This document shows, in pieces, positions 21,071 to 43,742 of a DNA stretch of 64,000 nucleotides (its first letter is position 1; the number at the start of each line of letters is the position of its first letter). The notes under the pieces are model-generated. The model was not told the origin of the DNA, did no database searches, and saw only the letters and a program-made list of their open reading frames with translations. A program made the translations under genes and the position numbers. The stretch comes from Alphaproteobacteria bacterium. Lineage in GTDB: Bacteria > Pseudomonadota > Alphaproteobacteria > UBA828. Location of the stretch: positions 64,001 through 128,000 of the forward strand of contig CAXXVO010000007.1 of NCBI GenBank assembly GCA_963422645.2, read 5' to 3'.

Positions 21071-21213
21071 TGTAGACGGACGAAAGTCGTTGTGAATCGG
21101 GTCAAGGGGTGGAATCAGGCGGAATCGGGCGGAAGGTGGCGGAATCTCAAGGGGATGCGCGGCGGCACGGTGGCGGTGCGGCGGCTGGCGTGCGGACGGA
21201 AGTCTTTGCGAAT
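21071..21213 (+). repeat. Left end with two spaced putative transposase-binding sites
   Basis: CGAAAGTCGTTGTGAAT (about 21081) and CGGAAGTCTTTGCGAAT (21197-21213) are reverse-complement matches to the right-end repeats; GCGGAATC-like 10-bp repeats lie between them. Confidence 0.8.
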
Positions 21214-21437
21214 CGGGCCGTGCAGAGGCCGTGAATTGGCTGGAAACGATGATTTTCGGGGCGTTTCAGGGGTGCTGAAAGGCCCGTAAATCGGTGCGGT
21301 TTCGGGGTATCGGATTCGGCTGGAAAATCCGGTGCGAGGTGCGGGGCGAGGCGCCCGTCCCGCGAGGCTGGCGGCGGCCCGCGCCGGGGCGCTGAATCGG
21401 CTTGAGGTGGCGTGCGGCGGCGCGTAGGGTCGGGCGC

Positions 21438-21506
21438 GACGCCGGAAGCATTCGTAGTCCTCTCATGCCTTCGGGCGAGCGCGGGGTTTACGACCCGCCC
21501 GGCGTC
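21438..21506 (-). other. Structured element abutting the MuF-nuclease stop codon (candidate ncRNA)
   Basis: 8-bp closing stem GACGCCGG/CCGGCGTC enclosing two internal hairpins. Confidence 0.45.
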
Positions 21507-22711
21507 AACCTCCCTCCCCGACAATCCGCTTCAGGCGCCGGCGCGCGGCGTCGAGGTTATGGGGCTGCGCCTTGTGCAGGCTCACGATGTAGGCCTCGTC
21601 GCCACCTGCGGCCGACTTGACGACGGCCTTCCACAGGCGCCCGTCCTCTTCGAGGAAGCCCTGCGCGAAACGGCCGTTGTCCTCCACGAACATCTCCCCT
21701 TGATCGAGGATGCGCTGGACGCGGGCGTAGTCTGCGGGTTCGAGATCGGGGTGTCTCCTGGCCTGCTTTGCGGCGGTTTCTGTGGAGAGGCGGACGGTTC
21801 GGGAGCGTGCGCCGATGGCGCCGCGCACCGGGGCGGAGAGCACGGCCGCGGGCCAGTCGGCGTCGGACCGGCCTTCGAGGTGGTGAGCGGAAGAGCTGCC
21901 CGCGCCAGGGTTTGCCTATGGCGGCGCGTGCGAGGTCGGGGGGCGCGTCGTCGATCTTCTCGATCAGGCGGTTTGCGCTGTCGCGCCCGGGCCGGGCGCG
22001 GCCGACGTTGTGCTGGAAGCCGGGATCGATGCCGAGGGGGACCTGGTGGATGCGGCCGGTGCGGCGGTTCTTCCACGGCCTGGTGCGCCCGGAGAGCGGC
22101 GGCGGGCCTGACGACACTTTATAGCCGTAGCGCTCCAGGTCGTCGTCTCCGAGCTGCTGGACGATGCAGCGGCACTTCCATCCGTTGGGCGGGTAGTGGG
22201 TCTTCCAGAAGGGGTGATCGACGGGAAGGATGGTGCCGTGCCATGCGAGGTGGTCGGGCCTGGTGCGGGCGTCCTGGACGGCGACGTAGCGGAGCCAGGG
22301 CATGGCCTCCCTGAGGCGCTCGATGCGCTCCCATCGGCCGCGGGCGTAGGCCATGCGGATGTTGGTATCGAAGATAATGCGCAGGCGGTGGGCCGAGCCG
22401 AGCTGGACGATGCGCGTCTTGCCGGTGAGGGGATCGGTCATGGGCTGCCTGCCCCACCATCCCTTGCGGACCAGGGTGGGCTGCAGCTCCTTGGCGAAGG
22501 TCTCGAAGGTTGTGCCGTCCGCGATGGCCTTGTCGGCGGCGGTGCGCAGGTCCTGGAGGATGTCGAGCTTCGCGGCCTTGGCGGCGGTGAAGGAGACCAG
22601 GTGCTGCTCGGCATCGGTATCGCGCCAGTCGAAGCCTGTGTGGAAGCCCCTGGCGCGGAAGTGCTCGACGGCCTCTGCGGGGGGTACGTCCAGGATCTCG
22701 GGCGCGGGCAT
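21505..22711 (-). pseudogene. Mu gpF-like minor head protein with a C-terminal BECR/PBECR-like nuclease domain; +1 frameshift near 21886
   Basis: RLRIIFDTN, D.RTRPDH, PPNGWKCRC (MuF); tail VRLS.ETAAKQ..RHPDL..DY...KAVVK...YIVSLHK continues in another frame after TTC CGC T CAC CAC. Confidence 0.8.
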
Positions 22712-24198
22712 CAGCCCTCGCCCTCGTCGAGGCCTGCGTCGCCGGAGAGGCGGGCGGAGAATGCGGTGCGGCGGAGGCGGCGGGCGATGCGGTCTGCGTT
22801 CATGTTCTCCCAGAGCTGGCGCTCGTCGAGCGCGGCACGGAAGCGGCCGAGGCTGTCGGCGTTCTCTGCGGCGCCGAGCACGGGGGCGACGACCGGCTCC
22901 ATGAGGGGCTGCCAGTCTGCGGCGATCGCGTCCACGGCGTCGTCGATGGCGTCGTCGTCCTGCTGCGCCGGCTCGGCGAGGCGCGCGGGGCGGGGATCGC
23001 CGCCTGGCGTCGGGGGCGCGTCGGGGGCTTTCTCCCATTCTCCGCCGTAGACCTGCTCGACATGGGCGGGGGTGGGGCGGAGGCCCGAGGTTCGGGCGAC
23101 GGTCTCCTCGCGCCTGGCGCGGGCCACGAGGTCCTCGGGGGGCGCGGTGTTGCGGGCGAGTTCGGGCACGTCTGCGCCGGGGAAGTTCCATTGGGTGAGC
23201 CAGGCGGCGACGGAGTTGCGCAGCGCGGCGGAGAGCCGTCGGGCGTCGGCGGCGACGAGGCGCTCCAGCACCTTGGCCTGGACTTCGGCGGTGCCGCGCC
23301 AGGGTCCGATCTCGGAGGTTGCGCGCTGGCCGAGGACGGCGTCCGCGATCATGCCGTCGAGGGCTGCGACGAAGGCGCCGTAGTCGCCGCCGGCGCGGCG
23401 GGCCGAGTCGAGCAGCCTGAGTTCCTGGCCTTCGGGGATGACGAGGCCGGCGCCTCCGGCCATGGCGCGCTGGGCCTGGAGCATCGTCTCGATCTCGGCC
23501 GCCGGCGCGTCGCGGCGGACGGTGCCGATGGCGGTGGGGCTGCCGAACTTCTCGAGCGCGACCGCCCACATGCGCACAGCCTGGCGCTTGAGCCAGACCG
23601 GCCAGAGGCACCACTGTGCGGCGCCGGGGCCGTGGGGCTGGCCGCCGTGGCTGCGGGGCTGGGCGAGCACGACGAACTTGGCGGGCGGGAGTTCGGCGCC
23701 GCGCGGGTTCTCGCGGGTAACGAGCAGCGGGGTTCCGTCCCTGCGCCAGCGGAAGCGGGCGGGGTCGCGGACCTTGAGATCGGCGAGGCGGACGCGGGCG
23801 CCGTCGATCTCCCAGATGCACTCGGCGATGCTGTATCCGTACCAGGCGGCGTGGAGGAGTTCGCGGGAGATGCGGTCGATCCCGATCCCGCCGAACTGGT
23901 CCGCGAGGTCCCCGGCGGCCTGTCTGTCGCGGCGCATCGGGCCGCCGGGTTCGATATCGAGGGGGGCGGCCGTGACGGCGTCGAGGCGCTGGTCGAGGAC
24001 GGCGCGGGCGTGGGGGTCGCGGAGCGCGGCCTGTGCGGCCGCGATCCCGGTGGGATCGGCCTGCCACTGGCGGGGGTCGGCGCCGAGCGCCGGGTCGCTG
24101 TCGAGCCAGGGGAGGACGAGCTCGCCGATGCCGCCGATGCCGGCCTGCGGGCCTGCGATCTCGGCGGTCCCGGGACGTGCGGGGGCGGGCGCGGCCAT
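22711..24198 (-). CDS. Mu-like portal protein (DUF935 / gp29 family)
   Basis: AAWYGYSIAECIW, PAKFVV, ALEKFGSP, AVLGQ; located between terminase and F. Confidence 0.92.
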   Translation of the reverse strand: MAAPAPARPGTAEIAGPQAGIGGIGELVLPWLDSDPALGADPRQWQADPTGIAAAQAALRDPHARAVLDQRLDAVTAAPLDIEPGGPMRRDRQAAGDLADQFGGIGIDRISRELLHAAWYGYSIAECIWEIDGARVRLADLKVRDPARFRWRRDGTPLLVTRENPRGAELPPAKFVVLAQPRSHGGQPHGPGAAQWCLWPVWLKRQAVRMWAVALEKFGSPTAIGTVRRDAPAAEIETMLQAQRAMAGGAGLVIPEGQELRLLDSARRAGGDYGAFVAALDGMIADAVLGQRATSEIGPWRGTAEVQAKVLERLVAADARRLSAALRNSVAAWLTQWNFPGADVPELARNTAPPEDLVARARREETVARTSGLRPTPAHVEQVYGGEWEKAPDAPPTPGGDPRPARLAEPAQQDDDAIDDAVDAIAADWQPLMEPVVAPVLGAAENADSLGRFRAALDERQLWENMNADRIARRLRRTAFSARLSGDAGLDEGEG

Positions 24199-24201
24199 GG
24201 G

Positions 24202-25407
24202 CTATCGCCAGCCGTTCAGGGCGGAGAGGGGGGAATGGACGACGCCGAGTTCGGTGTCGATGCGGTAGCCGGTATCGCCGTCGAAGGGGGAGCCCGGCAT
24301 GTCATGGACGGCGTGGCGGCCCTCGCCGATCCAGGCCTGGAAGGGGCCGGATGCCTGCGAGGCCGAGAGGCAGGCGAGCGCGAGCGCCCAGAAGCGGTCG
24401 GCGTGGCCGTCGGTGCCCGAGCGCTCGGCGACCAGGCGGGGCGAGCCGGTGGGTCCGGCCTCGGCGCGCACGGCGTGGAGGTCGCGGCGCAATGCCTCGT
24501 CTGCGGGGAGGCGCAGGCGCTTGTCCTCCATGGCCTCGCGCAGCGCGGTGGCGGCATCCAGCCGGCGCGGGCCGGTCATGAGCACGCCCTCGACCCGCAG
24601 CGTGCCGTGGTCCTCCTGCCACTGCTCGACCACGGCCTCGCCCATGCCGGTCTGGTCGACCGCGATGCGGAGCGGGCGGTAGCGTTCGGCGAGGCCGCGC
24701 ACGATCCTGCGCTGCTCGCTGAACGGGATGCCCTGGCGGGCGACGATCTCGCGCACCCAGAGCGCGTCGGCGGCCTTCTCGATGACGGCGGCGACCCAGA
24801 GATCGCGGCGCCGCGCCACGTCGACGCCGATCCAGGTGCTCCCGCCGGCGTGGCGCACAGGATCGCCCGCGTCCGGGTGCTCGCGCTCGCGGATCAGGTC
24901 CCATGCGAGCCAGGCGCCGGTCCCTGCACTGGGCACGCAGTCGAGCTCCTCGGCGCCCCGGTGGCCGTAGGTGCGCCGGATCCCGGCCTCCCATTCGGCC
25001 TCCGCCCCGGGCGAGTACTCCTTGCCCGTCACCTCGAAGATGCGCCGGCCCAGCCCTTCTGCGACGGCCCGGCGGAAGGGGATGCTGTGGACCGACCCCG
25101 GCTGGCGGCCCTCGCGCACGTCGCGCAGCAGCAGGTTGAAGGGGCTGGCCTCGCCGTTGTGGGTCGAGATCACATGGACCCGCCCGCCCCACGTGAGGAA
25201 GGCGAGCGCGGCCTTGAGCACCTCGCCCAGGTCGTCGACGAAGGCGGCCTCGTCGATTATCGCCCGGTCTCCGGGGCGTCCCCTGGACCTGAGCGCGCGC
25301 GGCGCGCTGGTCATCGACGTGATGGTCTTCCCCGAGGCGAGCTGGATGCGGAACACCTGCACGGCCCTGGCATTGCCGGCATCGATGACGCTCTCGCCGA
25401 TGGCCTG
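24202..25407 (-). pseudogene. Terminase large subunit (Mu gp28-like), 5' truncated
   Basis: Walker B AIIDEAAF, ISTHNG, nuclease motif GVDVARRRD, GHADRFWALALA; no Walker A or start codon; joined out of frame to an upstream gene fragment. Confidence 0.85.
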
Positions 25408-25493
25408 CGGTCGGAACACATCTCGCGGACGCCGATGCCGTAGTGCGCCGCGACATGGCTCTGGATCAGGCCGATCGACGGGTAGTCGCTCAT
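25408..25493 (-). pseudogene. N-terminal fragment of a DnaA C-terminal-HTH-like protein
   Basis: MSDYPSIGLIQSHVAAHYGIGVREMCSDRR resembles the start of DnaA domain IV; ends at the deletion junction. Confidence 0.55.
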
Positions 25494-26374
25494 GCGGGGA
25501 TATTCCCCGGCGGGAACGTGCCTCCGTCCGCGCGCGCGAAGACGCGCCGGCAGTGCCCGGGGCACCAGGACCGGCCCGGCGCGCGCGGTGCCCCGCACCA
25601 CGCGGGAAAGCCCGGGTCGCCCGGCTCGTCCTCGATCCAGAGGCAGCCGCCGGGCGGCGCGGGCTGCGCCTCGGGCACGTCAGCTTCCGGCTCCCCGGAC
25701 GAGGGGTCGGAAAGTGACGCAGCCTCGGGAGTCCCGGAATGGGTATCGTGCCCATTCTCCGCCGGCGCCGGCGGTCCATCGGGTGCGGCCGCCCCGACCG
25801 CCGGCGCGCGGCGCCGGCGCCGCCTCTCGCCGCCTTCCCACAGTCCGAGCCGGTGGATCTGGCCGTTCACGCTATTGGGCGAGCGCTCGAGCAGCCCGGC
25901 GATGTCGGCGTGGTGATCGCCGGCGGCGTAGCGCTCGCGCAGGACGCGGGTATCTTCCTCCGACCAGCGTTGCGTCAGTCGCTTCCGCTGGGTGGTGGGC
26001 CGGATGCGAGGTCCTGTCTCAACTGCGGGATCGTCTGCCGCATCGGCATCGTGTCTATTGCACCCGGCGCATGGCTCGAGGCCGCAATCGGCCGCGCCGG
26101 GATCCTGCTCGGTGGGGACCGCGCCGGCGCCGGCGTCGCCAAGGGGCGAATCGTCGGCCGGGCCATGCGCAGGGCGCATGTCGCGCGGCTCAGCCACGGG
26201 CGGCTCGTCCCCGGGCTGCGGCGTCACCGCCGCGAGGCTGCGCTCCAGCCATTGCCGGAAGGTGCGGTCGCCGAGCTCGGCGCCGAGGCGCCGGCGCAGC
26301 ATGTCGCGCTTGTCGACGAGGTCGGCCGTCAGCACCGGCGCGTCGGCGTCCGGCGCCGCAGCGGGGGCGCTCAT
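25490..26374 (-). CDS. GcrA-like regulator with an N-terminal DnaA_N-like segment
   Basis: LGAELGDRTFRQWL; WSEEDTRVLRERY.AG...DIA..L..SPNSVNGQIHRLGL; C-terminal CLWI...WCG...SWCPGH. Confidence 0.75.
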   Translation of the reverse strand: MSAPAAAPDADAPVLTADLVDKRDMLRRRLGAELGDRTFRQWLERSLAAVTPQPGDEPPVAEPRDMRPAHGPADDSPLGDAGAGAVPTEQDPGAADCGLEPCAGCNRHDADAADDPAVETGPRIRPTTQRKRLTQRWSEEDTRVLRERYAAGDHHADIAGLLERSPNSVNGQIHRLGLWEGGERRRRRRAPAVGAAAPDGPPAPAENGHDTHSGTPEAASLSDPSSGEPEADVPEAQPAPPGGCLWIEDEPGDPGFPAWCGAPRAPGRSWCPGHCRRVFARADGGTFPPGNIPA

Positions 26375-26595
26375 GCGGCGTCCTCCGGGTGCAGCAGCGC
26401 GACCACGTTCCCGCCCTTTGCGACCTCGCCCCGGGAGAGCGGGCCGGGACCGGCCGCGCGCTCCCAGGCCGCCAGGCGCTCCGCGATGTCCTCGATGCCG
26501 TCGCAGAACAGCAGCCAGAGCTCCGGGGAGCAGGTCCCGCCGGCGATCTCGTAGCGGACGCTGCGCAGCGCGTTGCGGAGATCGTCGGACAGCAT
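26371..26595 (-). CDS. Hypothetical phage protein
   Basis: Overlapping start and stop codons with neighbours in the early operon. Confidence 0.55.
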   Translation of the reverse strand: MLSDDLRNALRSVRYEIAGGTCSPELWLLFCDGIEDIAERLAAWERAAGPGPLSRGEVAKGGNVVALLHPEDAA

Positions 26596-26890
26596 CACGC
26601 TGCCTCCCCGGCGCGCTCGCGCCCGTCCCCGTCGCCGCCGTGGTTCTCCTGCTCGGCAACCGCCTCGGCGGCGACCGTGAGACTGTCCGCGTCGATGCGC
26701 TCGCGGCCCTCGGCGCGGGCCAGCTTCCACGCCTCGGTCAGCACCCGGCGCAGCGTGTGCAGCCCGCCCTTGCCCCGCGCGGCCCTGACCAGGGCCCTGA
26801 GCTCGGCCTTGCCGGGCCTGCGGCCCAGAGGCCCCGCCGCAGCGATGGCGGCCACGTCCCCTTCCGCCAGGCGCCTGAGTGGGGTCGTGC
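26595..26890 (-). pseudogene. C-terminal fragment of a MuB-like AAA+ transposition ATPase
   Basis: GDVAAIA...ARGKGGLHTLRRVL..A..LA resembles the AAA+ lid; lies directly after the transposase fragment. Confidence 0.6.
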
Positions 26891-26957: not shown

Positions 26958-27371
26958 TCAGAGCCATTCCGGCGGCGCCCCGCGTTGGAAGCGATCGTCG
27001 AGCAGGGAGACCAGGCGCGCAATCGGCCTGCGACCGCAATAGCGACGCCGCCACTTTCCGACCGTCCCCGCCGACAGGCCTGTCTCACGTCCGCCCGCGG
27101 CGTCGGCGTGGTACAGCGGAAAACCGCGCGCCACCGCACGCATCGATGCCTCCACGGCACTCAATCGTGTCCGTGCCGCATCCCGTGCCTCCTGCGGCGC
27201 CGTGTCCCAGATCCGCTGCCACGCGGCCGCCCGCTCGATGTCGATGGGATCGATCCATGCGGTTCGCATCGGAACCGCGGCGTTCCGTTCGTCGCCACAG
27301 ACGGTCGAAGCATCGCGATACGCCTGCGTGGCGATCCGGGCGCCGCCCTTCCGGGTCAGCTCGCCGGTCAT
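26958..27371 (-). pseudogene. N-terminal HTH fragment of a MuA-like transposase
   Basis: AR.AARTRL.AV...GLSAGTVGKWRRRY...LLDDR..RG, then a stop; no DDE domain. Confidence 0.55.
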
Positions 27372-28129
27372 GGCTCGCCCGCCAGATGCTCCAGCGCCGG
27401 CTGGATCTCGTCCTGAAGAACCGTTTGCGCCCCCTCGATGCGGGCGTCGATCGCCGCCTCCAGACGCGCCGCCAGCGCACGCCGCTCCGCCGGCGGCATC
27501 CCCGCGGCATCGCGCGATGCCTGTGCGATCCGACCCATCACGGCCCGCAGGACCGGATCGATCTCGTCCATGAGAGCCGCCACGGCGCGCTCGTCCGCGC
27601 CCGCCCCGCCCGCCTCCGGGCCCTCGATCGGCGCCAGCGCCGCCGCCGCGTCGGCGTGCCGCGCGCGCAGCGCAGCGCCCGCCTTGCCGAACTCCCGGCG
27701 GATATCCCGCGCCAGACCGTACTGGGCACTGCGGTGCATCGCCCGGATCTCCGACGACCGCGACGCCTCGACAGCGACCTTCGTCATGCGTCTGGCGGCG
27801 CCGGCGGCCACTCGTTGCTCGGCATCGATCCGGTCGCGCATCCGGTCCGCTGCGTCCCGCGCCCTGGCAGGATCGGTCGGCTTGCAGCCGCCGCACCGCG
27901 CCTCCCGAACTGCCTCGCGCACCCGCTTGTCAATCGGCTTTCAATACTGACCCCCGATCGGCGTGCAAAATTGACCCCCCTGAGTGGCACGGCGGAGGTT
28001 GTCCCGGTAGCCAATAGGGGGGACCCGCGCGGCTTCGTGTGGCGCCCTGCGCTACGCGGAGCGAAGCCGCGTGGGGGGTCCCTGTTGGCCCACCGGGGCA
28101 ACCGGGCCGCAAGGGAGGCCGGCGGCGGG

Positions 28130-28858
28130 TCAGGAGCGGTTCTTGAAGCGCCAGCTCTCGTTGCCGGTCTCGATGATCTCGCAATGATGGGTGAGGCGAT
28201 CGAGCAGCGCTGTGGTCATCTTGGGGTCGCCGAAGACGGATGGCCATTCGCCGAAGGCGAGGTTTGTGGTGATGACGATCGAGGTGCGCTCGTAGAGCCG
28301 GCTCATCAGATGGAAGAGCAGCTGCCCACCGGCCTGGGCGAAGGGCAGGTAGCCGAGCTCGTCGAGGATGACGAAGTCGCGGCGGACGAGCTGGTCTGCA
28401 GTGCGGCCCTGGCGTCCGGCGCGAAGCTCGGCCTCGAGGAGGTTGACCAGGTCGACGACGTTGTAGCACCGGCCGCGCGCGCCCTTGCGGATGCAGGACC
28501 GCGCGATGGCGACGGCGAGATGGGTCTTGCCGGTACCGGTGCCGCCGACCAGCACGATGTTGCGTTTGCCCTCGAGGAAGCCGCCGCCGGCGAGCTCCTG
28601 GATCAGGGGCTCGTTGACCGGCGAGGCGGCGAAGTCGAAGTCGGCCAGCTCCTTGACCGTCGGCAGCTTGGCGGAGGCCATCTGGTACTTGATCGAGCGG
28701 GCCCTCTTGTCGGCGATCTCGACCTGCAGCAGCGTACCGATGATCTGTTGCACCGGATGGCGGCGCTTGAGCCCGTCGGCAAGGATGTCGTCGTAAGCGG
28801 CGCGCATACCTGCGAGCTTCAGCTGGGTCATCATCTCCAGCACATCATGACGCTCCAT
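28130..28858 (-). CDS. istB: IS21 helper ATPase IstB
   Basis: [31 protein letters not shown]. Confidence 0.96.
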
Positions 28859-30359
28859 GACCGGCCTCCCTCAGGCTGTCGTAGCGCTGACAGTCGGCTA
28901 CCGGCTTGTGGCGAAGCTGCAGGCCCTCGGGCGTCGGGATGATTGCCGGCGGTGCCGGCTGGCGCTGCCGGGCGAGGATGTTGAGCACCACGTCGGCGCT
29001 GCAGGCACCGCAGTCGAGCGTCTCGGCACAGGCCGCCTCAACCGCCTCCAGTCCGTCCTCCAGCACCGCCGCGAGCACCTTGACGAACTGCCGGTCGCCG
29101 TCGTCGTGGCCCGCGAGCCGGGTTCGCAGGCGGCCGAGCGCGTTGGGCAACTGCCAGTCCTTGAAGGGCGCGCCATTGCGTAGCGCGCCGGGCTTCCGCG
29201 TCAGGATCGGCACGTAATGCCACGGATCGTAGACGAACCGGCCGCGCCCGAAGCTGCGGGGGTGCTCGGCAACGGTCTCGCCGTCCTGGCGGATGACGAT
29301 CCGATCGGCATAGGCCCGCACGTCCACCGGCCGGCCGACGGCGCGGGCCGCGACGCTGTACTGGTTGTTGTCGAAGCGCACCAGACAGGTCTTCGAGACC
29401 GACACCTCGCTGGCATGGAAGCCGTCGAAGGGGCCGCGATACGCCATCAGGAAGGGCTGCTCCTCCTCGAACACCTGCCACACCGTCTTGCCCGGGATTG
29501 TCGGATGCGGATGCTTCTTGGCGTCCTCGATGCACCGATCCATCAGCCACTCGTTGATCTCGGCGTAGGAGCGGCCCCGCGGGATGGGCACGAACAGGCG
29601 GCCGCGAAGGTCACCCACCTGCTTCTCGACCTGCCCCTTCTCCCAGCCAGCCCCTGGCGTGCACGCCACAGGCTCCACCAGATGGTGCGAGCACAGCTCC
29701 TGGAAGCGGCGGTTGTAGTCCCGCTTCTTGCCCACGAAGATCGTGCTCACCGCCGTCTTCATGTTGTCGTAGATGCCCCGCCGGCAGACCCCGCCGAAGA
29801 AGCGGAAGGCACGCTCGTGCGCCTCGAAGACCATCTCCTGGCTCTCGCGGGGAAAGATCTGGACCAGATACATCCGGCTGTGGCACAGCCGCATGTGCGC
29901 CGCCTTCACCCTGGTCGTCGCGCCCGACAGACGCGCGTACTCGTGGCTCCAGTCGAACTGGTAGGCCTCGCCGGGATCGAAGATCAGCGGCACATAGGCC
30001 TGCGCCGGCGACAACAGCCGCCACCGGCGCCGCCAGGCCCTGGCATAGCGGCGAACCGCGTCATAGCCGCCCTTGTAGCCCAGCGACACAAGGTCTTCAT
30101 GAATCCGCAGAAGAGACAGCCGATCCTTGCGTGCCTTCTTCTCGTTGGCCTTCAGCTGGCGCTCAAGCTCCTCCACCCACAGCCCAAGCTTCGGCATCGG
30201 CTGGATCTTGCGCTCGTAGCTGTGCGAGGTCGCATCGCCCCGCACCACCTTGCGTATCGTGTTCTTGGAAACCCTCAAATCCCGGGCGAGCTTCTTGATC
30301 GGAACGCCCTTCACCAGATGATCCCGACGGATCTTCGCGATCGTTTCCACAACCAGCAT
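28845..30359 (-). CDS. istA: IS21 transposase IstA
   Basis: [27 protein letters not shown]. Confidence 0.96.
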
Positions 30360-31888: not shown

Positions 31889-31967
31889 ACCAATCACCGT
31901 ATTGGCACAGGAACCAACTGTCAACAGAAGATTTGCGCTTTCATCAAGATGTTGGTATTTGTGCCAA
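31878..31967. promoter_or_regulatory. Lysis/lysogeny switch: three TTGG-N8-CCAA operators and a leftward promoter
   Basis: Operators at 31878-31893, 31902-31917 and 31952-31967; minus-strand TTGACA (31924-31919), 17-bp spacer, TACGGT (31901-31896). Confidence 0.75.
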
Positions 31968-33508: not shown

Positions 33509-33726
33509 GCGATGAATCCCACAACAAGGTTGAGCACCTGAAAATGATTCAGGACGTCACTGCCCGCTTGGCGGGAAACAGCGTCCAAATGAAGACTTGG
33601 GCCGTCGCGTTGGTCACTTCAGTTTTCGTCTTCTCAGGTCTGTCCCAGGATCCCCACTGGTTGATCGCCGTCGGCGGGGGCGTTGCGGTCGTTACATTCT
33701 GGCTGTTAGACGCCAGATATCTGTAT

Positions 33727-34777: not shown

Positions 34778-34990
34778 ATCTGTATATCGAAAGATGCTAC
34801 AGGGCACTCTACCGTGATGTCGCTGCCGGAAAATCCACCAAGCTTTTCGACATGGGCTATAGCTCTTATGCCAACTCTGTCGATTCCATATGGAGAATCA
34901 TAAGATCTTGGTCAGTCTGTTTGTTCTACGGACCTCTTTTGGCTGTACTGGGTGCTCTCTTTTTCGTCATTGTCAAAACAGGAGGATGTC

Positions 34991-35608: not shown

Positions 35609-36442
35609 TCAATTCGAGATCAGCAGCTCTCCGGCTCTCCGCGTGGCCTTTGCGTTGGCGGAGTATCGGGTTTCCACGGCTTCGATCCGGAAGCCCCTGA
35701 ACGTCTCCCGCGTCTCGGGCGTGTCATTCAACGACAGGATGAACCGCCCTTTCAGCCTGGCGAGCATCGCGGCCATGCGCCCAAAATCCTCCCGTGAGAA
35801 CAGTCCCTTGCCGTAGTCGTTTTCGTGCCCGAGGTATGGCGGATCGATGTAGAACAGCACGAACTCCCGGTCGTATCGCTCGAGGAACACGGCCCAGTCG
35901 AGGCGGTCGATATGGACGTGTGCGAGGCGCCTGTGGGCGGCCTCGATCAGCCTGCGCATGCGGGCCGACGAGAACCTTGCCCTGTGGTGGGGCGTGACCA
36001 TGCCGGTCTGTCCGGGGGTGGCGTCGGTTGCGGGTTTTCCGCCGAAGGCGTTGGTCTGGAGGTATGCGAACCTGGCGGCCCTCTGGATGTCGGTGAGGGT
36101 ATCGGGGTTGACGGCGCAGAGGCGTCGGAACTCGGCTCTTGAGGATGAGGCCCAGTCGAACTGCCGGGCCAACTCCTGCGGATGTTCCCTCACCATCCTG
36201 AAGAGGTTGACGACGTCTCCGTTGATGTCGTTGACGATCTCCGCTCTCGGTCGCTGGCACCGTCTGAGGAACACGCCGCCCATGCCGAGGAAGGGTTCGG
36301 CGTAGCATTTGTGCGGGATCGCCTCGATGCGCTCGATGATGCGGGCGGCGAGGTATTTCTTGCCGCCGAACCAGGGCGCGAGCGGCGTTGCGGGCTCGAC
36401 GGCCTCGAGGGCTTCCGGTGCGCGGCCCGAACGACTCGACAC
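35609..36442 (-). CDS. D12-class N6-adenine DNA methyltransferase (phage Dam-like)
   Basis: WFGGK, YAEPFLGMGGVF, NDING, FYIDPPY, ELLISN. Confidence 0.93.
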   Translation of the reverse strand: MSSRSGRAPEALEAVEPATPLAPWFGGKKYLAARIIERIEAIPHKCYAEPFLGMGGVFLRRCQRPRAEIVNDINGDVVNLFRMVREHPQELARQFDWASSSRAEFRRLCAVNPDTLTDIQRAARFAYLQTNAFGGKPATDATPGQTGMVTPHHRARFSSARMRRLIEAAHRRLAHVHIDRLDWAVFLERYDREFVLFYIDPPYLGHENDYGKGLFSREDFGRMAAMLARLKGRFILSLNDTPETRETFRGFRIEAVETRYSANAKATRRAGELLISN

Positions 36443-36448
36443 GGGGGT

Positions 36449-36570
36449 CGCCTCCCACGATCATGCTCCCGCCCCGTGCGGGGTGGCGGGACGGCCACAG
36501 CTGGGCCGGTTGCGGTCGTGGGAGGCGTTATCTCCCGGTTCGGGATGTTGTGAGCATCCCGTCCCCCGCC
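36449..36570 (-). promoter_or_regulatory. Structured leader of the methylase with an anti-Shine-Dalgarno sequence
   Basis: Multi-hairpin region at 36485-36570; 36516-36527 is the exact reverse complement of 36449-36460, which holds the GGGAGG ribosome-binding site. Confidence 0.6.
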
Positions 36571-36737
36571 CCGGCCCCCCGGATACCCGGAACAAGTCCG
36601 GGGGCAGGCTCTTCCGGACGGCCTTCGGGCCGTCCGGGGCGTGGGTTCGAGACGGATTCCAGCACATTTTGCGGCTTTCGTTCAGGGGACCATGGTCCCC
36701 TGACGCGGTTTCCGATTGTGTGCCTATATTCGGCCCC

Positions 36738-37967
36738 ATGAGCGCATTGGACGGCTGGATCGACGTTTGCCGGACGGGGACCTGGACCGACCTGTCGGGG
36801 CGGGAGGTCCTGCTTGGCGAGGACGATCTCGAGCGTGTCGCTGCGGCCTACGGTTCTGCGGACCCTGCGCCCGTTGTTGTGGGCCATCCGGAGACGGACG
36901 CGCCGGCCTGGGGCTGGGTTGACGGCCTGCGGCAGGTGGGCGACCGGCTTCAGGCGAAGCTGCGCGATATCGCGCCGGCGTTCCGGGAGGCTGTCGAGGA
37001 GGGGCGCTACGCCATGCGCTCGGTCGCTCTCAACGGCGACACGCTGGTTCACCTCGGCTTTCTGGGTGGTCGGGCGCCTGCGGTCGACGGCCTTGCGCCG
37101 ACGCGGTTCTCGGGTTCTGCGGACCGGACGATCCTTCTGGCGGCGTCGGACCTGGCGGACTCGGAGCGCTGGGCGTGGGGGGCGGTACGGCGGACGCTCA
37201 GGCGCCTGCGCGACTGGGTAATCGAGCGCGACGGCGTGGAGAAGGCCGATGCGCTGATCCCGGAATGGGATATCGAGGCGATCGGCGAGCACATGGATGC
37301 GTCCGATACGCCGGCGACGCTCGCCGGCAATGCGGGCGCGGCGGCGGCCCGCGAGGCCGTCAGGCGGATGTCCGATACCGTCAACCGGATGTTGGATACC
37401 TACGGCGACACCGGCGGCGGCGCGGACTCTCACGACACCGGCACCATCGACGACGACACGGAGGAGGGCGCGATGCCCGACGAGGACAAGGAGGCCAGGC
37501 TGGCCGCGGAGCGTGAAGAGCTGGCTGCCGCCCGCGCGGCGCTTGCGGCGGAGAGGGCGGCGCACGAGTCGGCGGTCGCTGCGGCGGAGCGCCTTGCGGC
37601 GGCGGATGAGGAGATCGAGGGCCATGTGAAGGCGGGGCGTGTGCTTCCGGCGGAGGGGCCGCGGCTGTCGGCCCTTCTGGCGTCGCTGCCGGACGACGAC
37701 GCCGGCGAGACGCGGCTGGCGTTCGCGGCGCCCGGCGCGGGCGAGGTCCGGGAGACCCCGCGAGCGGCGCTGGCCGGGTTCCTGGGCGGTCTGCCGAAGC
37801 GTGTGGACTACACCGAGCGTGCGCCGGACGGGGACGCTGCGGCGGAGGAGGCGCGCGATCCGCACGCGCTTGCGTCCCGGGCTCGGGCGCTGATGGCGGC
37901 GGATGCGACGGGGAGCATGACCATCGCCCAGGCGGTGCGCCGGGCGGCGGCGGAGAACGCGGGATGA
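36738..37967 (+). CDS. Mu gpI-like head maturation protease/scaffold
   Basis: IDVCRTGTW.D, APVVVGHP, PAWGWV, HLGFLG...PAVDGL; coiled-coil C-terminal half with a probable internal start at 37473. Confidence 0.88.
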   Translation: MSALDGWIDVCRTGTWTDLSGREVLLGEDDLERVAAAYGSADPAPVVVGHPETDAPAWGWVDGLRQVGDRLQAKLRDIAPAFREAVEEGRYAMRSVALNGDTLVHLGFLGGRAPAVDGLAPTRFSGSADRTILLAASDLADSERWAWGAVRRTLRRLRDWVIERDGVEKADALIPEWDIEAIGEHMDASDTPATLAGNAGAAAAREAVRRMSDTVNRMLDTYGDTGGGADSHDTGTIDDDTEEGAMPDEDKEARLAAEREELAAARAALAAERAAHESAVAAAERLAAADEEIEGHVKAGRVLPAEGPRLSALLASLPDDDAGETRLAFAAPGAGEVRETPRAALAGFLGGLPKRVDYTERAPDGDAAAEEARDPHALASRARALMAADATGSMTIAQAVRRAAAENAG

Positions 37968-38542
37968 ACGAATATCTTCTGACGAAGAACTTCGCTGCGG
38001 CTGGCGCGATCGGCGCCCACCGTATCGTCGCCGTCGGCGCGGCGGCCGGGACGGCCGCCCGGGCGGGGGCGGAGAACGCTCCGCTGCTCGGGATCGCCGA
38101 CGAGCTCGGTGCGAAGGGCGGCGCCCGGGTGGACGTGCATCTGGCCGGCATCGCGCCGGTCGAGGCGTCCGGGGCCTTCGACAGCGGCGCGTCGCTCGCT
38201 GCCGATGCCGACGGCAAGGCGGTCGCGGCCGCGCCCGCGAGCTACAGCGCCGTCGTCGACGGCGCCGCCGCCAACGGCGACATCGCAGTGGCGGGCCTGC
38301 TCAAGGCGACCGACAGGCTGACGGCGGTCATCGAGCTGGCCTCGGACGGGGCGGCGGTGGTGCCGCGCACCGCCGCCAGCAGCGTCCACGGCGACGGCGT
38401 GATCCGCTGCACTCAAGGCACCGCCAACAAGAAGCTGCTGGTGCTGTGGGATCGCCGGATACAGGCGGTCGGGCGCGCGCTCGGGGCCGCTGCGGCCGAC
38501 GGCGACATCGTCCCGGTGCTGATCGCGCCGGCGACGCTCTAG
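37964..38542 (+). CDS. Putative capsid decoration/cement protein (DUF2190-like)
   Basis: Between protease and capsid; Ala/Gly-rich; AADADGKAV and GRALGAAAADGDIVPVLI. Confidence 0.65.
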   Translation: MNEYLLTKNFAAAGAIGAHRIVAVGAAAGTAARAGAENAPLLGIADELGAKGGARVDVHLAGIAPVEASGAFDSGASLAADADGKAVAAAPASYSAVVDGAAANGDIAVAGLLKATDRLTAVIELASDGAAVVPRTAASSVHGDGVIRCTQGTANKKLLVLWDRRIQAVGRALGAAAADGDIVPVLIAPATL

Positions 38543-38557: not shown

Positions 38558-39502
38558 ATGCCTGACAACATTCTCTCGACCTACCCGGTCGATTACGAGC
38601 GGACGGCGATCGCCGTCGGCTATTCCAACCCGGCCTATATCGCCGACGAGGTTCTGCCGCGTGTGACGGTGGGCCGCAAGGAGTACCGCTACACCGAGTA
38701 TCCGATCGGCGAGAGCTTCACGGTTCCGGACACGCGGATCGGGCGGCGGAGCGCGCCGACGATGGTTCACTTCACGGCGAGCGAGAAGCCGGGGGCGTGC
38801 GAGGACTACGGCCTCGAGGACGCGATCCCGGACGACGACGTGCGGAACGCGCCGCCGGGTGCGGCGAACCCGGTCGACCGCTCGACCATGCGGCTCACGG
38901 ACCTCTTGATGATCGCCCGTGAGAAGCGCGCCGCGGACCTGGTGTTCGACAAGGCGAAGTACCCGGACAGCAACAGGACGACGCTGGCGGGCAACGACCG
39001 GTGGAGCGCGGACCACGCCGACAGCGACTCGATCGACGACATCGTGGGCGCGATGGAGGGGATGGTGGTTCCGCCGACGCATCTTCTGCTGGGCAGCGCG
39101 GTGTGGCAGAAGCTGCGGACCCACAAGGTCGTCCTGAAGGCGCTGAACCGGAGCGAGGGGGACCGGGGGATTGCGAGCCGCCAGGCTGTGGCGGACCTGT
39201 TCGACCTCCAGGCGCTCGTCGTGGGCCAGACCTGGATCAACTCGAAGGCGCGCGGGCAGGACGCGGTGCTGGCGCGGGTGTGGGGCAAGTCTGCGCTTCT
39301 GTTCCGGCGCGACCCGAACGCGGATGCGAGCGGACCGCCGACGCTGGGGATCACGGCTTCCTGGCGGGGGCGCGAGGTCCGCTCGGGCTTCGACGCGGCG
39401 ATCGGCGCGCGGGGGGCGCACCGCATCCGGGTGGTGGACAGCGTGGAGGAGCGGATCGTTGCGCCTCTGGCGGGCTATCTGTTCGACGCGGCGGTCGCGT
39501 GA
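38558..39502 (+). CDS. Major capsid protein
   Basis: 314 aa; TAIAVGYSN..YIADEVLPRV, REKRAADL, C-terminal AGYLF..AV; position in the head operon. Confidence 0.85.
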   Translation: MPDNILSTYPVDYERTAIAVGYSNPAYIADEVLPRVTVGRKEYRYTEYPIGESFTVPDTRIGRRSAPTMVHFTASEKPGACEDYGLEDAIPDDDVRNAPPGAANPVDRSTMRLTDLLMIAREKRAADLVFDKAKYPDSNRTTLAGNDRWSADHADSDSIDDIVGAMEGMVVPPTHLLLGSAVWQKLRTHKVVLKALNRSEGDRGIASRQAVADLFDLQALVVGQTWINSKARGQDAVLARVWGKSALLFRRDPNADASGPPTLGITASWRGREVRSGFDAAIGARGAHRIRVVDSVEERIVAPLAGYLFDAAVA

Positions 39503-39918: not shown

Positions 39919-40142
39919 GCAAGGGCGAGCTGCGCGTCGGGATCGGGTTCAACCCGTCGGGCGACGGGACGGTTGCGGCGATCAAGCGGCAGTCGGCGGA
40001 CCTCATTGACCTGATCGAGACCATCGATCCGGCCTCCGACGGGATCGCCGGCGAAGTGGCCCGCCTCAAGGCTCTGGCGCAGACCGATATCGAGAGCGCC
40101 GCCATGTGGGCGGTGAAGGCCGCGACGAAGCGGGCGGCGTGA
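39915..40142 (+). CDS. Acb2/Tad1-like small helical protein (candidate immune-signal sponge)
   Basis: 75 aa with good RBS; FNPS, IK...ADLID, RLKALAQTDIESAAMWAVKA. Confidence 0.65.
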   Translation: MSKGELRVGIGFNPSGDGTVAAIKRQSADLIDLIETIDPASDGIAGEVARLKALAQTDIESAAMWAVKAATKRAA

Positions 40143-40570
40143 TCGTGCCCTACGCGACGCCCGAGGATCTGCGGACGCGCTACGGGTCCGGGGAGCTGGA
40201 CCGGCTGCTCGACGAGGGCTGCGACGGCGAGCCCGACAGGGACCGTGTCGAGATGGCGCTTTCGGACGCCTCGGCCGAGATCGACAGCACGCTGGCGCGG
40301 GCCTTCGGCCTGCCGCTGCCGGCGGGCGGCTATCCGGCGCTCACGGCGATCTGTTGCGACCTGGCGCGCCAGCGGCTCTACGACGACGCGCCGACCGAGG
40401 CGGTGTCGAACAAGGCGCGGCGCAGCCGGGCGCTGTTGCAGGCCATTGCCGGGGGCGAGGCGGCGCTGATCGACGCGCAGGGCGGGACCGTCTCCCGCCG
40501 CGGCCCGGCGGCTCCGGCCCATTCCGGGCCTGCGCCGGTCATGACGCCCGAGACCCTGGCGGGGATGTGA
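40139..40570 (+). CDS. Mu gp36-like head-tail adaptor (DUF1320)
   Basis: YAT.EDL..RYG..EL, AL.DASAEID..LA...LPL, CCDLAR.RL. Confidence 0.88.
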   Translation: MIVPYATPEDLRTRYGSGELDRLLDEGCDGEPDRDRVEMALSDASAEIDSTLARAFGLPLPAGGYPALTAICCDLARQRLYDDAPTEAVSNKARRSRALLQAIAGGEAALIDAQGGTVSRRGPAAPAHSGPAPVMTPETLAGM

Positions 40571-40607: not shown

Positions 40608-41129
40608 ATGTCCGGCGCGGGGGTGCGTGTCGACGTGGAGTACGACGACCGCGAGGTGCGCGCGGCGCTGGTGCGCCTGATCGCGCGCATGGACGACCCG
40701 CGCCCGGTCATGGACGGGATCGGGCAGAAGCTGGTCACGAGCGTCATCCACCGCTTCGAGAACGTGTCCGCGCCGGACGGGACGCCGTGGAAGAAGAGCA
40801 GTCGTGCGGAGGCCGAGGGCGGACAGACGCTGACGGACACGGGCCGTCTGCGGGCCAGCATCACGCACCGGGCGTCCCGCGACGAGGTGCTGGTCGGCAC
40901 CAATGTCGTCTATGCCGCGATCCACCAGTTCGGCGGACGCACGCCGGCGCGCACGATCCGGCCGCTGGGGAAGAAGGCGCTGTTCTGGCCGGGGGCTGCG
41001 CATCCGGTGAAGAAGGTCGAGCACCCGGGGTCGACGGTCACGGCGCGGCCCTTCCTGGGCGTGAACGGGGGCGACCGCGACGCGATCCTGCGGCTGCTCG
41101 GGCGCCACCTGGCGGGGGCGGTGTCGTGA
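40608..41129 (+). CDS. Virion morphogenesis protein (Mu gpG family)
   Basis: RF....PDG.PW, LTDTGRLRASI, VGTNVVYAAIHQFGG, ARPFLG. Confidence 0.92.
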   Translation: MSGAGVRVDVEYDDREVRAALVRLIARMDDPRPVMDGIGQKLVTSVIHRFENVSAPDGTPWKKSSRAEAEGGQTLTDTGRLRASITHRASRDEVLVGTNVVYAAIHQFGGRTPARTIRPLGKKALFWPGAAHPVKKVEHPGSTVTARPFLGVNGGDRDAILRLLGRHLAGAVS

Positions 41130-41323
41130 GCGCTGCGGTGCTCGATATGGATTTCCCGGCCGCCGACGCGGCCGTGGCGCGGTTGCGCGCGCTGTTCACG
41201 CGGAAGGGGCGCGAGGGCCGCGACCTGCCGGAGTGGGCCGACGAATACGTGGCCGCGACCGGCGGCCTGCGCGACGTGCTGGGCCTGCTGGACTGGCCCG
41301 GTGAGCGTGCGCCCAGCATTTGA
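41126..41323 (+). pseudogene. Probably truncated phage gene at the point where the tail module was lost
   Basis: GTGA-coupled to G; ends abruptly where the sequence switches to the primase module. Confidence 0.45.
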
Positions 41324-41400
41324 TGGTGCGGTTTTCGGATTATTTGATGTTCGTGATGCGGCGCTTGGTTGATCTGCGAGAGCGGTGAGTGGCCTGGCTT

Positions 41401-42270
41401 TCATCGAGACCGCAGGAGCATCTCGTTCCAGTCCTTGGCGTGTCGTGGGCGCAACCTTTTCACCCTTGGATCGTTGAGCACGAGATGCTCGGCGGCAGTG
41501 TCGCCGGCGCTGTCTGCGTCGTAGGCACAGACGATGCGACGTGGCTTCCACTCCTTGATCCAGGGCGGGACCGAGCTGGCGATGCCGGCGGTTGAGGCGA
41601 CGACGGCGCCGTTCTCGCGCGTCCCCTCGACGCGCAGGCTTCGTGCAGAGATGGCGTCGACGGCGCTCTCGGTGAGGATGACGAGGGCGGGCTGGTTTCG
41701 GTCGCAGTGGAGCCAGAAGCCGCCACGCGCCTTGCGCGATCCCGGGGCCATGCCCCTGAAGCGTTTTGTTCCGGGCTGCGGCGCGGTGCCGAGGATCTCG
41801 GCGCCGGTCGTGTGCCCGCTGGCGTTTCGGCAGATGAAGACGGCGTTGATCCTGTCATCGGCGTAGAGGAGGCCTCGGCCGTGGCAGGCTTCGAGCACGT
41901 CGGTGCCGATAGCGCGTTGGCGGATGAGGGCGTCCCGGACCCTGGGCCAGGCGCGGGGACTGGGCCTTGGCAGCCGCAGGCGTCGCGGGGCGGCTGGGAT
42001 GGTGGTGATCTCCCTCCGCCCCTCATGGCTTCCGAGGAAGCGGAGGGCTTCCGGGAAGCGGCATCCCGTCGCATGGATGACGAGGTCGATGGCGCCACCC
42101 CCTCCCGTGCCGCGCAGGTGATCGAAGAACTTCTCGCCGTTGATGCTGATGACCGAGCCCCCGCGCTTGAAGCGCGCCCGGTCGGTCGGGTCTCTGCGGT
42201 AGCCGAGGGCGGCGGCGACCCGGTCGAGGGGGATGTTGCGGCAGGTGGCCAGGGGATCGCCGCCGCTCAT
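41401..42270 (-). CDS. DUF3991/toprim primase-like protein
   Basis: GGGAIDLV.H...C.F.EAL, LYAD...NAVF, ESAVDAIS, AYDADSAG, KDWNE. Confidence 0.85.
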   Translation of the reverse strand: MSGGDPLATCRNIPLDRVAAALGYRRDPTDRARFKRGGSVISINGEKFFDHLRGTGGGGAIDLVIHATGCRFPEALRFLGSHEGRREITTIPAAPRRLRLPRPSPRAWPRVRDALIRQRAIGTDVLEACHGRGLLYADDRINAVFICRNASGHTTGAEILGTAPQPGTKRFRGMAPGSRKARGGFWLHCDRNQPALVILTESAVDAISARSLRVEGTRENGAVVASTAGIASSVPPWIKEWKPRRIVCAYDADSAGDTAAEHLVLNDPRVKRLRPRHAKDWNEMLLRSR

Positions 42271-42311
42271 TGCCGGGTCCCGGCGAAGGTCTGCTTGGAA
42301 GGGAGGCTGAC

Positions 42312-42372
42312 GGCGTTCCCGTTCCTGTACCCTTCAACGCTTAAGAGTTCCGGGAACGGGAACGGGAACGCC
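42312..42372. repeat. Inverted repeat with GGGAAC iterations (candidate replication origin)
   Basis: 14-bp arms GGCGTTCCCGTTCC / GGAACGGGAACGCC; three GGGAAC units; lies between helicase and primase. Confidence 0.6.
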
Positions 42373-43371
42373 TCATCCCGCACTTCCGTTGATGGCGGCA
42401 GGGGATTGCGGCTCCCGGTGCGCCTCGGCGGCTGCGAGGCGATAGCCACCCCTGGGCGCCCGTTCGATGCGCCCCTCCCTGGTGAGGCTCTCGATGGCGG
42501 CAACGACGGTGGCGTTGCGGGCAGCGGCGCGTGAGCGGATCTGGGCTTTCGAGAGCGGCTTTTCGGCCTGCTCGATCGCCTTGAAGACGCGCTGCTCGAC
42601 GGTGGCGGGCTCGTGCCTGTCTTCATCTGCCGCGTCCTGGTGCAGACGGAAGGCCGGCCCATGTCCGCCGTCGACGAGTTCCAGCTCGATGTCGTTGAGG
42701 CCCCGGGCGTCGCGCTGCTCGACCGTCATGACGATCTTCTTGTCGCGCCGGCGCAGGTACAGATTTGAGTCACCCCAAGCGTGCAGCTCGCTGCTCCCGC
42801 GCAGGGCCTGCCCCGGCCGGGTGCCGCCGCTCTTGCGGGCGTGGTGGACGAGGAGGACGGCGGTTTCGAAGCGGCGCTGCAGTTCGCGCAGGAAGCCGAG
42901 GATGGGGGCGATCTCTGCGACGGCGTTCTCGTCGACGCTGTGCAGGCGGACCAGGGGATCGAGGATCAGGAGGCGCGGTTCGATGCGCTCCACGGTCTGC
43001 TGCAGGCGTTGACGGTCGCCGGGCCGGTCGAGACGCAGGGTGGGCACGTCGATGACGGCGATGTCGAGTTCGTCGAAGGGGGTGGCGGCGGCGCGGGCGA
43101 TCCCCTGCAGACGCTTGCGCACCCTGTGGCCGGCGTCCTCGGCGGCGAAGAGCAGCACGGTGCCGCTTGCGCTGGGGCGGTAGTGGCGCAGGCATGGGAC
43201 GCCGGTGGCCACGGCGACGGCGAGATCGAGCGCGAGCAGGGATTTGCCGCACTTGGGCTCGCCGCCGACGATGCCCACGGCCTGCTCGGCCCACAGCGTG
43301 TCCACCATCCACTGTTGCGCCCGGGGGCGATCCTCGAGCTGCATCGGCGCCCGTGTCGGGAAGCCCTTCAC
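42373..43371 (-). CDS. RepA/AAA_25-type helicase-like ATPase with C-terminal winged helix
   Basis: GGEPKCGKS, AAED, LLILDPL, LVHHARK, LRGSS. Confidence 0.88.
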   Translation of the reverse strand: MKGFPTRAPMQLEDRPRAQQWMVDTLWAEQAVGIVGGEPKCGKSLLALDLAVAVATGVPCLRHYRPSASGTVLLFAAEDAGHRVRKRLQGIARAAATPFDELDIAVIDVPTLRLDRPGDRQRLQQTVERIEPRLLILDPLVRLHSVDENAVAEIAPILGFLRELQRRFETAVLLVHHARKSGGTRPGQALRGSSELHAWGDSNLYLRRRDKKIVMTVEQRDARGLNDIELELVDGGHGPAFRLHQDAADEDRHEPATVEQRVFKAIEQAEKPLSKAQIRSRAAARNATVVAAIESLTREGRIERAPRGGYRLAAAEAHREPQSPAAINGSAG

Positions 43372-43669
43372 CGCCGTGCCCTCTTCGGCTTGGCGGGCTC
43401 GCCCAGGATCTCCATGAAGAGCTTCTCGTCGAGAACCTCGCGGTTCTTCTCGGCGCCGGCGGCGAGCAGCATGTCGCCCATGACGGTAAGCGCCCTGGGG
43501 TTGCCGCCGGCGTGGGTGACCAGGGTGTCCTTGAGCTCTGCGCTCATGAGGCCCGGATTGCCGGCCTGCTCGACCAGATGGTCGAGCAGGGCCGCGAGGT
43601 CGCCGGCGTCTGCCTGGGTCATGACCAGGCGCTGGCGCAGGCGCGAGGCGATGGGCTGCAAGTCGGGCC
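43368..43669 (-). pseudogene. C-terminal fragment of an ExeA/TniB-like AAA ATPase
   Basis: PIASRLRQRL, LLDHL..QAGNP.LM, HAGGNPRAL; 5' part replaced directly by the right-end repeats. Confidence 0.7.
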
Positions 43670-43742
43670 ATTCGCAAAGACTTCCGGCCGCGATTCGCAA
43701 AGACTTTCGGCCGCGATTCGCAAAGACTTTCGGCCGGCTACA
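43670..43742 (+). repeat. Right end: three tandem 23-bp putative transposase-binding sites and terminal CTACA
   Basis: ATTCGCAAAGACTTYCGGCCG at 43670, 43693 and 43716. Confidence 0.92.

Follow-up and report, generated by a model that had tools for sequence, protein, structure and literature searches.

What kind of element carries a set of open phage head genes between Mu-type ends and no recognizable tail genes? The question is raised by positions 21071-43742 of a 64,000-nucleotide stretch of DNA from an Alphaproteobacteria bacterium of the lineage UBA828 (hereafter the window; positions 64,001 to 128,000 of contig CAXXVO010000007.1, assembly GCA_963422645.2). An earlier note, made from the letters alone, had wavered between simple decay of a prophage and a capsid-forming transposable satellite that moves with a helper transposase and replicates with its own primase-helicase module. 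We conclude, with a probability of about 0.8, that the element is a decayed Mu-like prophage with nested insertions, in a genome unusually rich in insertion sequences (ISs). Decay is favored because all three observations that the earlier note had named as signs of ordinary decay were made: the junctions within the element are unique to this locus, its relatives are tailed, and recent selection on its head genes, as read from few changes, is relaxed. The genome assembly used for the comparisons has 23 contigs and 5.9 Mb, with a completeness of 99.58% and a contamination of 8.48%.

Termini and target site

The left terminus begins with TGTAGACGG... and the right terminus reads ...GGCTACA, giving ends of the form TGTAG...CTACA. 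Copies of the 5-bp sequence GACCA flank the element at 21066-21070 and 43743-43747, inside a Rieske oxygenase gene. The 5' part of this gene lies in the left flank, where a Rieske profile matches (Pfam, 9e-16). When the flanks are joined by script and one GACCA is removed, an open Rieske-type frame of 490 codons is restored. This frame is collinear over amino acids (aa) 11-477, at 77% identity, with a paralogue at 44285-45661. The TG...CA ends and the 5-bp duplication described in the earlier note were thereby confirmed. The paralogue sits immediately downstream, and loss of the disrupted gene may have been buffered by it.

A 19-nt repeat, CGRAAGTCKTTGYGAATSG, occurs at both ends, which bears out the claim of intact end repeats. 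Two copies (21081-21099 and 21197-21215) lie in the left terminus (21071-21230, plus strand), which is of a type that we call LA. On the right there are three copies in tandem (43668-43732), and the terminus itself (43669-43742, minus strand; type R1) consists of a 23-bp repeat present three times in tandem and ends in ...CTACA. These repeats, two in the left end and three in the right, are putative transposase-binding sites.

Sequences from two other data sets bear on the target site. In each of the runs X2 and X19, a single contig (only contigs were compared) spans positions 20690-21071 with three other letters. These contigs continue for 457 and 193 letters beyond 21071 and do not match the compared stretch there. 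They fit an empty site in other organisms as far as the left flank goes, the join to the right flank lying outside the compared stretch. Small shares also turned up in sponge and marine metagenome runs and carry no weight for this site.

Private junctions and tailed relatives

The earlier note had proposed searching with the internal junctions. All four of them, at 25404/25405, near 26880, at 41301/41302 and at 43668/43669, turned out to be unique to this locus, and the stretch 25405-26877 is single-copy in the genome.

The most informative comparison within the genome is a paralogous block on another contig, C16:157880-171109 (loci L024 and L025), which has no Mu-type ends and is bounded on both sides by copies of an IS21-family element. 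The block holds a fragment of the transposase gene MuA, a DUF3102-like gene, a different allele of an S24 repressor, and genes for Dam, protease, capsid, gp36 and G. G is followed by a gene for a 281-aa tail protein and an N-terminal fragment of a tape-measure gene. From 26878 rightward the window has its homologue in this block. Where the window switches to MuB, the block instead runs on into MuA (aa 90-191), which makes the deletion junction near 26880 private to this locus.

A second comparison comes from the genome G220, which belongs to the same class but to a different family and has two remnants of this phage lineage with the same right-end sequence. The larger, G220:C4:1912347-1941900, encodes a capsid protein 61-64% identical to that of the element and has a homologous right end (TGTAAGCGAACAAAAGTCTTTC...AATGGCCTGGAAAA). 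F, portal, TerL, gp27 and GemA lie on one strand, and Dam, protease, scaffold, capsid, gp36, G, tail, tape-measure and J genes on the other. The second, G220:C2:889220-899818, is a remnant of about 10 kb. The pattern of decay in G220 is similar, the early region having been replaced by IS3-like and other insertion sequences. An rve match in the prophage was rejected as a candidate MuA, as it belongs to the IS3-like insertions.

No tail families were matched among the open reading frames (ORFs) of the element scanned against profiles, as the earlier note had claimed, and both the C16 block and the G220 prophage carry tail genes after G, where the element has a piece of a transposon. Scans of the same ORFs found neither lysis genes nor an integrase.

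Two IMG/VR contigs complete the layout. One (L026; capsid 72% identical) encodes S24 repressor, Dam, protease, capsid, gp36 and G. The other (L059; TerL 60% identical) encodes DUF3102-like protein, MuA, MuB, DUF3164, GemA, TerL and portal. Its MuA has 628 aa (rve, 4e-14; Mu-transpos_C, 2e-12) and its MuB 331 aa (AAA_22, Phage-MuB_C). Because the relatives show the same layout, the gene order of the window is native to a Mu-like lineage and not rearranged. An inversion of the head block was rejected, its order being shared by G220, C16 and L026.

The lineage shares much with Mu-like phages such as coliphage Mu and Pseudomonas phage B3 (NC_006548.1): TG...CA termini with a 5-bp duplication and repeated subterminal sites; Mu-type portal, F, gp36 and G genes; a gp27/gp28-type terminase in sister copies; GemA, DUF3164 and DUF3102-like early genes; and MuA and MuB in the relative L059. 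It differs from Mu and B3 in its split order, in which early, lysis, terminase, portal and F genes run to one end and protease, capsid and tail genes to the other. This copy further differs in having no MuA, only a small part of MuB, and no terS, lysis or tail genes. Identity of the portal protein to any phage in the phage collection is only about 34-38%. Overall, we are dealing with a phage lineage whose split gene order is unusual and for which no close relative is in culture.

Searches farther afield returned little. The 19-nt end motif was found in none of 40 related genomes, and the right-end pattern in 2 of 401 genomes of the class, namely this genome and G220. The terminus pattern had no match in metagenome contigs, and the end motif had two single internal matches in viral contigs. 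A DUF3102-like query found no relative in viral contigs. The portal query recovered one distant prophage (35% identity) from genome contigs, with ordinary Mu order. A literature search on natural multi-copy or non-autonomous Mu-like elements yielded nothing relevant among the results listed.

Selection on the head genes

The ratio of non-synonymous to synonymous substitution rates (dN/dS), which the earlier note had suggested computing, gave a two-part answer. In comparison with the C16 block, it is 0.28 for Dam (synonymous divergence, dS, 0.24), 0.44 for the protease (dS 0.045), 0.26 for the capsid (dS 0.14), 0.56 for gp36 and 0.55 for G. The least diverged genes behave differently: the ratio is near 1 for the scaffold gene against C16 (one synonymous and three non-synonymous changes) and for the portal gene against two copies on contig C9 (one and three changes against the first copy, two and seven against the second). 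Pooled, these recent substitutions comprise 4 synonymous and 13 non-synonymous changes. Divergence from C16 is mosaic, with dS per gene ranging from 0.006 to 0.24. At the sequence level, the older mosaic divergence shows purifying selection, as would be expected of genes from working phages, and the youngest changes in the head genes look neutral. Relaxation is seen in the least diverged genes (17 changes) and not in the older divergence (0.26-0.56).

Head and packaging genes

All of the head genes named in the earlier note are open and have family matches. The Mu-type portal gene (22711-24201, minus strand; 496 aa) matches Portal_Mu (PF06074) at 3.6e-78. On the plus strand follow the head maturation protease/scaffold gene (36309-37967; phrog_976, 4e-65), a scaffold or cement-like gene (37964-38542; phrog_673, 4.6e-18), the major capsid gene (38558-39502; phrog_1005, 8e-74), a gene for a Mu gp36-like head-tail adaptor (40106-40570; Mu Gp36, 9.8e-22) and the Mu G-type virion morphogenesis gene (40608-41129; Phage_tail_S, 5.2e-33).

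The packaging genes fared worse, and the truncation of terL reported earlier is real. The gene for the large terminase, TerL (24202-25404, minus strand), aligns at 99% to aa 240-643 of a full copy at C9:184754-189882. With the start of that protein at M165 (MSRALLPYQ...), the element's version is 75 residues short. The missing part includes the stretch KSRRIGLS, which we take to be the P-loop of this terminase type. The sequence upstream of 25404, before the TerL remnant, is single-copy and unrelated. A gp27 query for terS matched nothing in the element, though homologues were found in sister elements and relatives. Finally, the gp30/F-like head morphogenesis gene (21505-22700, minus strand) has one extra nucleotide near 21886 compared with the C9 copy, which splits its frame.

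The C9 copy (locus L010, 5,129 bp, with a 5-bp duplication) consists of an R2 end, TerL, portal, F, an LA end and little else. Its TerL is without the truncation seen in the window, its portal gene is open and its F gene is without the frameshift.

Transposition genes and the search for a helper

The earlier note held that MuA and MuB survive as fragments. This holds for MuB. The MuB of L059 matches the window only at 26694-26888 (minus strand; aa 255-318 of 331, 55% identity), leaving about 65 C-terminal residues next to the deletion junction near 26880; the Pfam MuB_C match there is below threshold (20 bits against a cut-off of 25). It does not hold for MuA at the level of similarity, as the MuA of L059 had no tblastn match in the element. 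From collinearity with the C16 copy, we infer that a MuA stub of at most about 47 codons may remain. Elsewhere in the genome, tblastn with the same query found MuA fragments at C16:157880-158188 (aa 90-191) and C10:193954-194554 (aa 69-270, frameshifted). As the relative L059 has MuA, we consider the gene to have been lost from this element.

No intact Mu-like helper of the kind sought in the earlier note was detectable in the genome by profiles or tblastn. The profiles PF02914 (DDE_2) and PF09299 (Mu-transpos_C) had no matches in the 5.9-Mb assembly, a result that is weak alone, as the control genomes were also without matches; PF09299 later matched the MuA of L059. Transposase A and protein B of phage B3, used as tblastn queries against the genome, gave only a marginal match to an insertion sequence. 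Every rve match in the genome falls in insertion sequences or in a 5.2-kb transposon. Two such pairs were considered as transposition proteins A and B of the element itself: IstA and IstB of the IS21-family element, and the rve and AAA_22 proteins of the 5.2-kb transposon. Both were rejected, as each unit has distinct termini of its own and occurs, in many identical copies, away from the Mu-like elements.

The primase-helicase pair and the transposon Tn-X

Another feature of the element is the pair of genes for a DUF3991-Toprim protein and an AAA_25 helicase-like protein at 41401-43677. The earlier note had correctly recognized both the pair and its position where the tail should be; what did not hold up is that it is a replication module of the element. 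The stretch 41302-43668 (2,367 bp, minus strand) is present in 21-27 copies in the genome at 99.7-100% identity. At its right edge nearly every copy joins a 2,826-bp unit encoding a helix-turn-helix (HTH) protein and a 536-aa IS481-like rve transposase. Together these parts form the 5.2-kb transposon, a member of the Tn552/Mu superfamily, which we refer to as Tn-X. Its full units measure 5,189-5,192 bp and have TGAGCG[C/T]GCGC inverted at both ends; eight full copies were verified (for example C9:31295-36483, L029), three of the eight with 4-5-bp direct repeats in their flanks. Five proteins are encoded: the HTH protein, the rve transposase, an AAA_22/ExeA-like ATPase (292 aa; E=1.3e-8 to protein B of phage B3), the AAA_25 protein and the DUF3991-Toprim protein.

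The copy inside the prophage is a 100%-identical piece of the 5,189-bp unit, without the transposase and most of the ATPase gene. Position 41302 is a true transposon terminus (TGAGCGTGCGC...), and the piece contains the last approximately 98 codons of the AAA_22 ATPase gene followed by the other two genes. Position 43668 is an internal break within the AAA_22 gene, where the piece meets the terminal 74 bp of the right arm at a microhomology of GGC, and the deletion responsible ends exactly at the innermost right-end repeat. Judged by its sequence, the primase-helicase pair belongs to a truncated half of a multicopy transposon and is not the prophage's own replication module.

By our own tally, about half of the listed Tn-X loci lie inside or beside Mu-like remnants. 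Complementary half-copies exist: the primase half is found here (43668/43669), and the transposase half in locus L019 (C13:69397-74329, at position 4172). Their breaks in the AAA_22 gene coincide to within 4 bp (GCCC), and each half is fused to an R1 arm.

A family of Mu-type termini

The earlier note reasoned from one copy, a premise that proved mistaken, for 85 termini of this family are present in the genome. We counted 144 copies of the 19-nt end motif (62 forward and 82 reverse) and none of a reversed-pattern control. A scan for full termini returned 107 sites, of which 85 are true termini of four types, the portal side having types LA and LB and the tail side R1 and R2. In twenty cases a left and a right terminus on one contig have matching 5-bp flanks; these pairs enclose 893-22,672 bp, the present element being the largest. 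Among the 45 unpaired termini, six left-right combinations across loci have matching flanks (about 0.5 expected by chance), such as C19:154904 with C14:63015. Such matches at separate loci point to rearrangement of the chromosome by recombination between dispersed copies.

All 20 paired elements have lost most of a phage genome. Each holds a different subset of phage genes, in an order that is fixed relative to the ends. Beside the left ends, and transcribed toward the end, are F, portal, TerL, gp27, SLT lysin and GemA; beside the right ends, likewise transcribed toward the end, are a 1,508-aa GpJ-like protein, a 2OG oxygenase, or glycine-rich fibre-like proteins. With insertion sequences removed and mutual coverage above 80% required, none of the 190 possible pairs shares a structure; the smaller elements are nested subsets of larger ones. 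The small members (893-2,875 bp) keep perfect duplications. The arms of different copies are 86-99% identical, whereas copies of the insertion sequences are 99.7-100% identical, from which it follows that the phage insertions predate the IS expansion that is now dismantling them.

The IS21-family element (about 70 copies, 100% identical) occurs at positions 198/199 of the LB arm in three loci (C10:36829, C19:136610 and C9:570772), in both orientations, and, in two elements, at matching positions (to within 1 bp) of the GpJ-like gene. The repeated positions suggest a strong target preference together with IS21-associated adjacent deletions.

Nested insertions and remaining genes

Two insertion sequences in the element, as well as the frameshift in gp30/F, were absent from the earlier account. 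The IS21-family insertion (IstA and IstB; 27928-30479, minus strand; CCCGCT flanks) splits an LmbU/DUF3102-like early gene, of which the 3' part lies at 27368-27927 (minus strand) and the 5' part left of about 31170. The interrupted frame is continuous in C16 (422 codons) and homologous to the gene that precedes MuA in L059. The IS1595-family insertion (33716-34788, plus strand) has 35-nt inverted repeats and about 20 copies in the genome. A second copy lies at 46928-48000, outside the prophage, and its frame at 47001-47984 (328 codons) equals the frame at 33789-34772 in length and in codon-position GC values.

The remaining genes are a GcrA-like gene (25530-25970, minus strand) within the single-copy stretch, a small HNH-like ORF (31197-31679, minus strand; weak match), a gene for a repressor-like protein with a Peptidase_S24 domain (31849-32844, plus strand) and the gene for a D12-class (Dam) adenine methyltransferase (35609-36460, minus strand).

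A proposed history of the element

The phage would have arrived by Mu-type DDE transposition into the Rieske oxygenase gene, leaving the 5-bp duplication. Read leftward from the center, its native left block would have comprised a DUF3102-like gene, MuA, MuB, DUF3164, GemA, lysis genes, terS, TerL, portal, F and the left end; read rightward, the right block would have comprised repressor, Dam, protease, scaffold, capsid, gp36, G, tail genes and the right end. One deletion would have removed nearly all of MuA and about three quarters of MuB, and a second everything from the genes after MuB through codon 75 of TerL, GemA, the lysis genes and terS among them. F would have been broken by the 1-nt insertion, and the IS21 and IS1595 elements would have entered the gene upstream of MuA and the interval between repressor and Dam, respectively. 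On the right, Tn-X may have inserted just after G, and a later deletion may have run from inside Tn-X to a point 74 bp from the right terminus, taking the transposase half, the tail genes and most of the right arm; insertion followed by deletion is the simplest history that the sequence of this side suggests. Left today are both ends, apparently intact, the open head genes and the stranded AAA_25 and Toprim pair of Tn-X. As it stands, the element cannot transpose, package DNA or build a virion on its own.

Weighing the alternatives

Several observations speak against decay as the full account. The order of the decay events is only inferred. Both termini keep their repeat arrays, and the right-hand deletion stops at the innermost repeat, as an element mobilizable in trans would need. 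An intact copy may be hidden in the 23-contig assembly, collapsed or unassembled. The neutrality of recent changes is based on just 17 substitutions. Six genes of the head region are open both here and in C16, and the dN/dS of 0.26-0.56 between these copies fits past purifying selection and is compatible with present use.

A laboratory mini-Mu has two Mu-type ends and deleted transposition genes, and can be moved in trans. The present element has the same combination and might, by analogy, be movable in principle; it differs in being about 22.7 kb long and laden with insertion sequences, with neither a helper nor a second copy of its structure found. A natural mini-Mu, non-autonomous because it was defective on arrival or still movable by helper MuA and MuB acting on intact ends, would account for the intact termini (two repeats left, three right), the clean duplication, and a family that has clearly transposed many times here, down to members of 893-2,875 bp with perfect duplications. 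A duplication, however, outlasts later internal deletion and so gives no date for the deletions. An amplified family of the miniature inverted-repeat transposable element type would share structures, unlike the 0 of 190 pairs observed, and the four junctions are unique to this element, their segments being single-copy. No Mu-type transposase was found in the genome (as represented by 23 contigs), the end motif is absent from the 40 relatives, and the right-end motif is present in only one other genome of 400 searched. We consider a natural mini-Mu unlikely. Domestication of the head-gene block by the host, for instance as a particle- or compartment-forming module, while the remainder decays, draws on the same six open genes in two diverged copies (here and C16:163049-168598), on their dN/dS of 0.26-0.56 and on their survival in a genome otherwise heavily disrupted by insertion sequences. 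Mosaic dS of 0.006-0.24, however, is what phage recombination typically produces prior to integration, the least diverged genes have a ratio near 1, and the portal and head genes lie on opposite sides of wrecked regions; domestication is very unlikely.

The satellite that the earlier note had in mind would be a Mu-ended analogue of a capsid-forming phage-inducible chromosomal island (cf-PICI), which makes its own heads, replicates by its own primase and helicase and borrows tails. The open portal, protease, scaffold, capsid, gp36 and G genes agree with this, as do the failure to find tail and lysis genes among the scanned ORFs and the presence of a primase and a helicase-like gene. As published, the core parts of a cf-PICI include terS and terL (PMC10085698). 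Compared with a cf-PICI, the element is alike in that it encodes heads and head-tail connectors while tail and holin genes are missing among the ORFs scanned, and unlike in having no integrase, no terS, a truncated terL and a primase that is not its own; transposon ends replace att sites, and its origin appears to be by visible deletions from a tailed phage. A regulator with an S24 domain is present. Even so, terS was not found, TerL is minus its first 75 residues, F is frameshifted, and the primase-helicase pair is a 100%-identical transposon piece cut off from its upstream genes. No integrase was seen among the scanned ORFs, no helper transposase was found, and the relatives are full tailed phages. 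A satellite with its own replication module is thus not supported and, in our estimate, almost certainly the wrong answer. A decayed prophage remains the preferred interpretation.

Implications

By itself the locus is no more than a wrecked prophage of an ordinary kind, and there is no need to pursue the idea of a satellite. With its 85 termini, the genome documents an exceptional series of at least 43 Mu-type insertions. Some of these were perhaps defective copies moved in trans by a helper that has since been lost or that came with a superinfecting phage, and the element itself might still be mobilizable, and perhaps packageable, by a related phage, which we regard as distinctly improbable. 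This thought arises because neither end array has been lost and the head genes form a complete open set (the frameshifted F aside). If it were true, a related phage providing MuA, MuB, terminase and tails would make the element a facultative hitch-hiker and not a dedicated satellite. Tn-X is a little-described type of transposon that carries a primase and a helicase-like ATPase. More broadly, Mu-type remnants serve in this genome as landing pads for other mobile DNA, and the dozens of internally deleted Mu-type insertions, with their IS21, IS1595 and 5.2-kb transposon copies, form a natural record of how transposable prophages decay.

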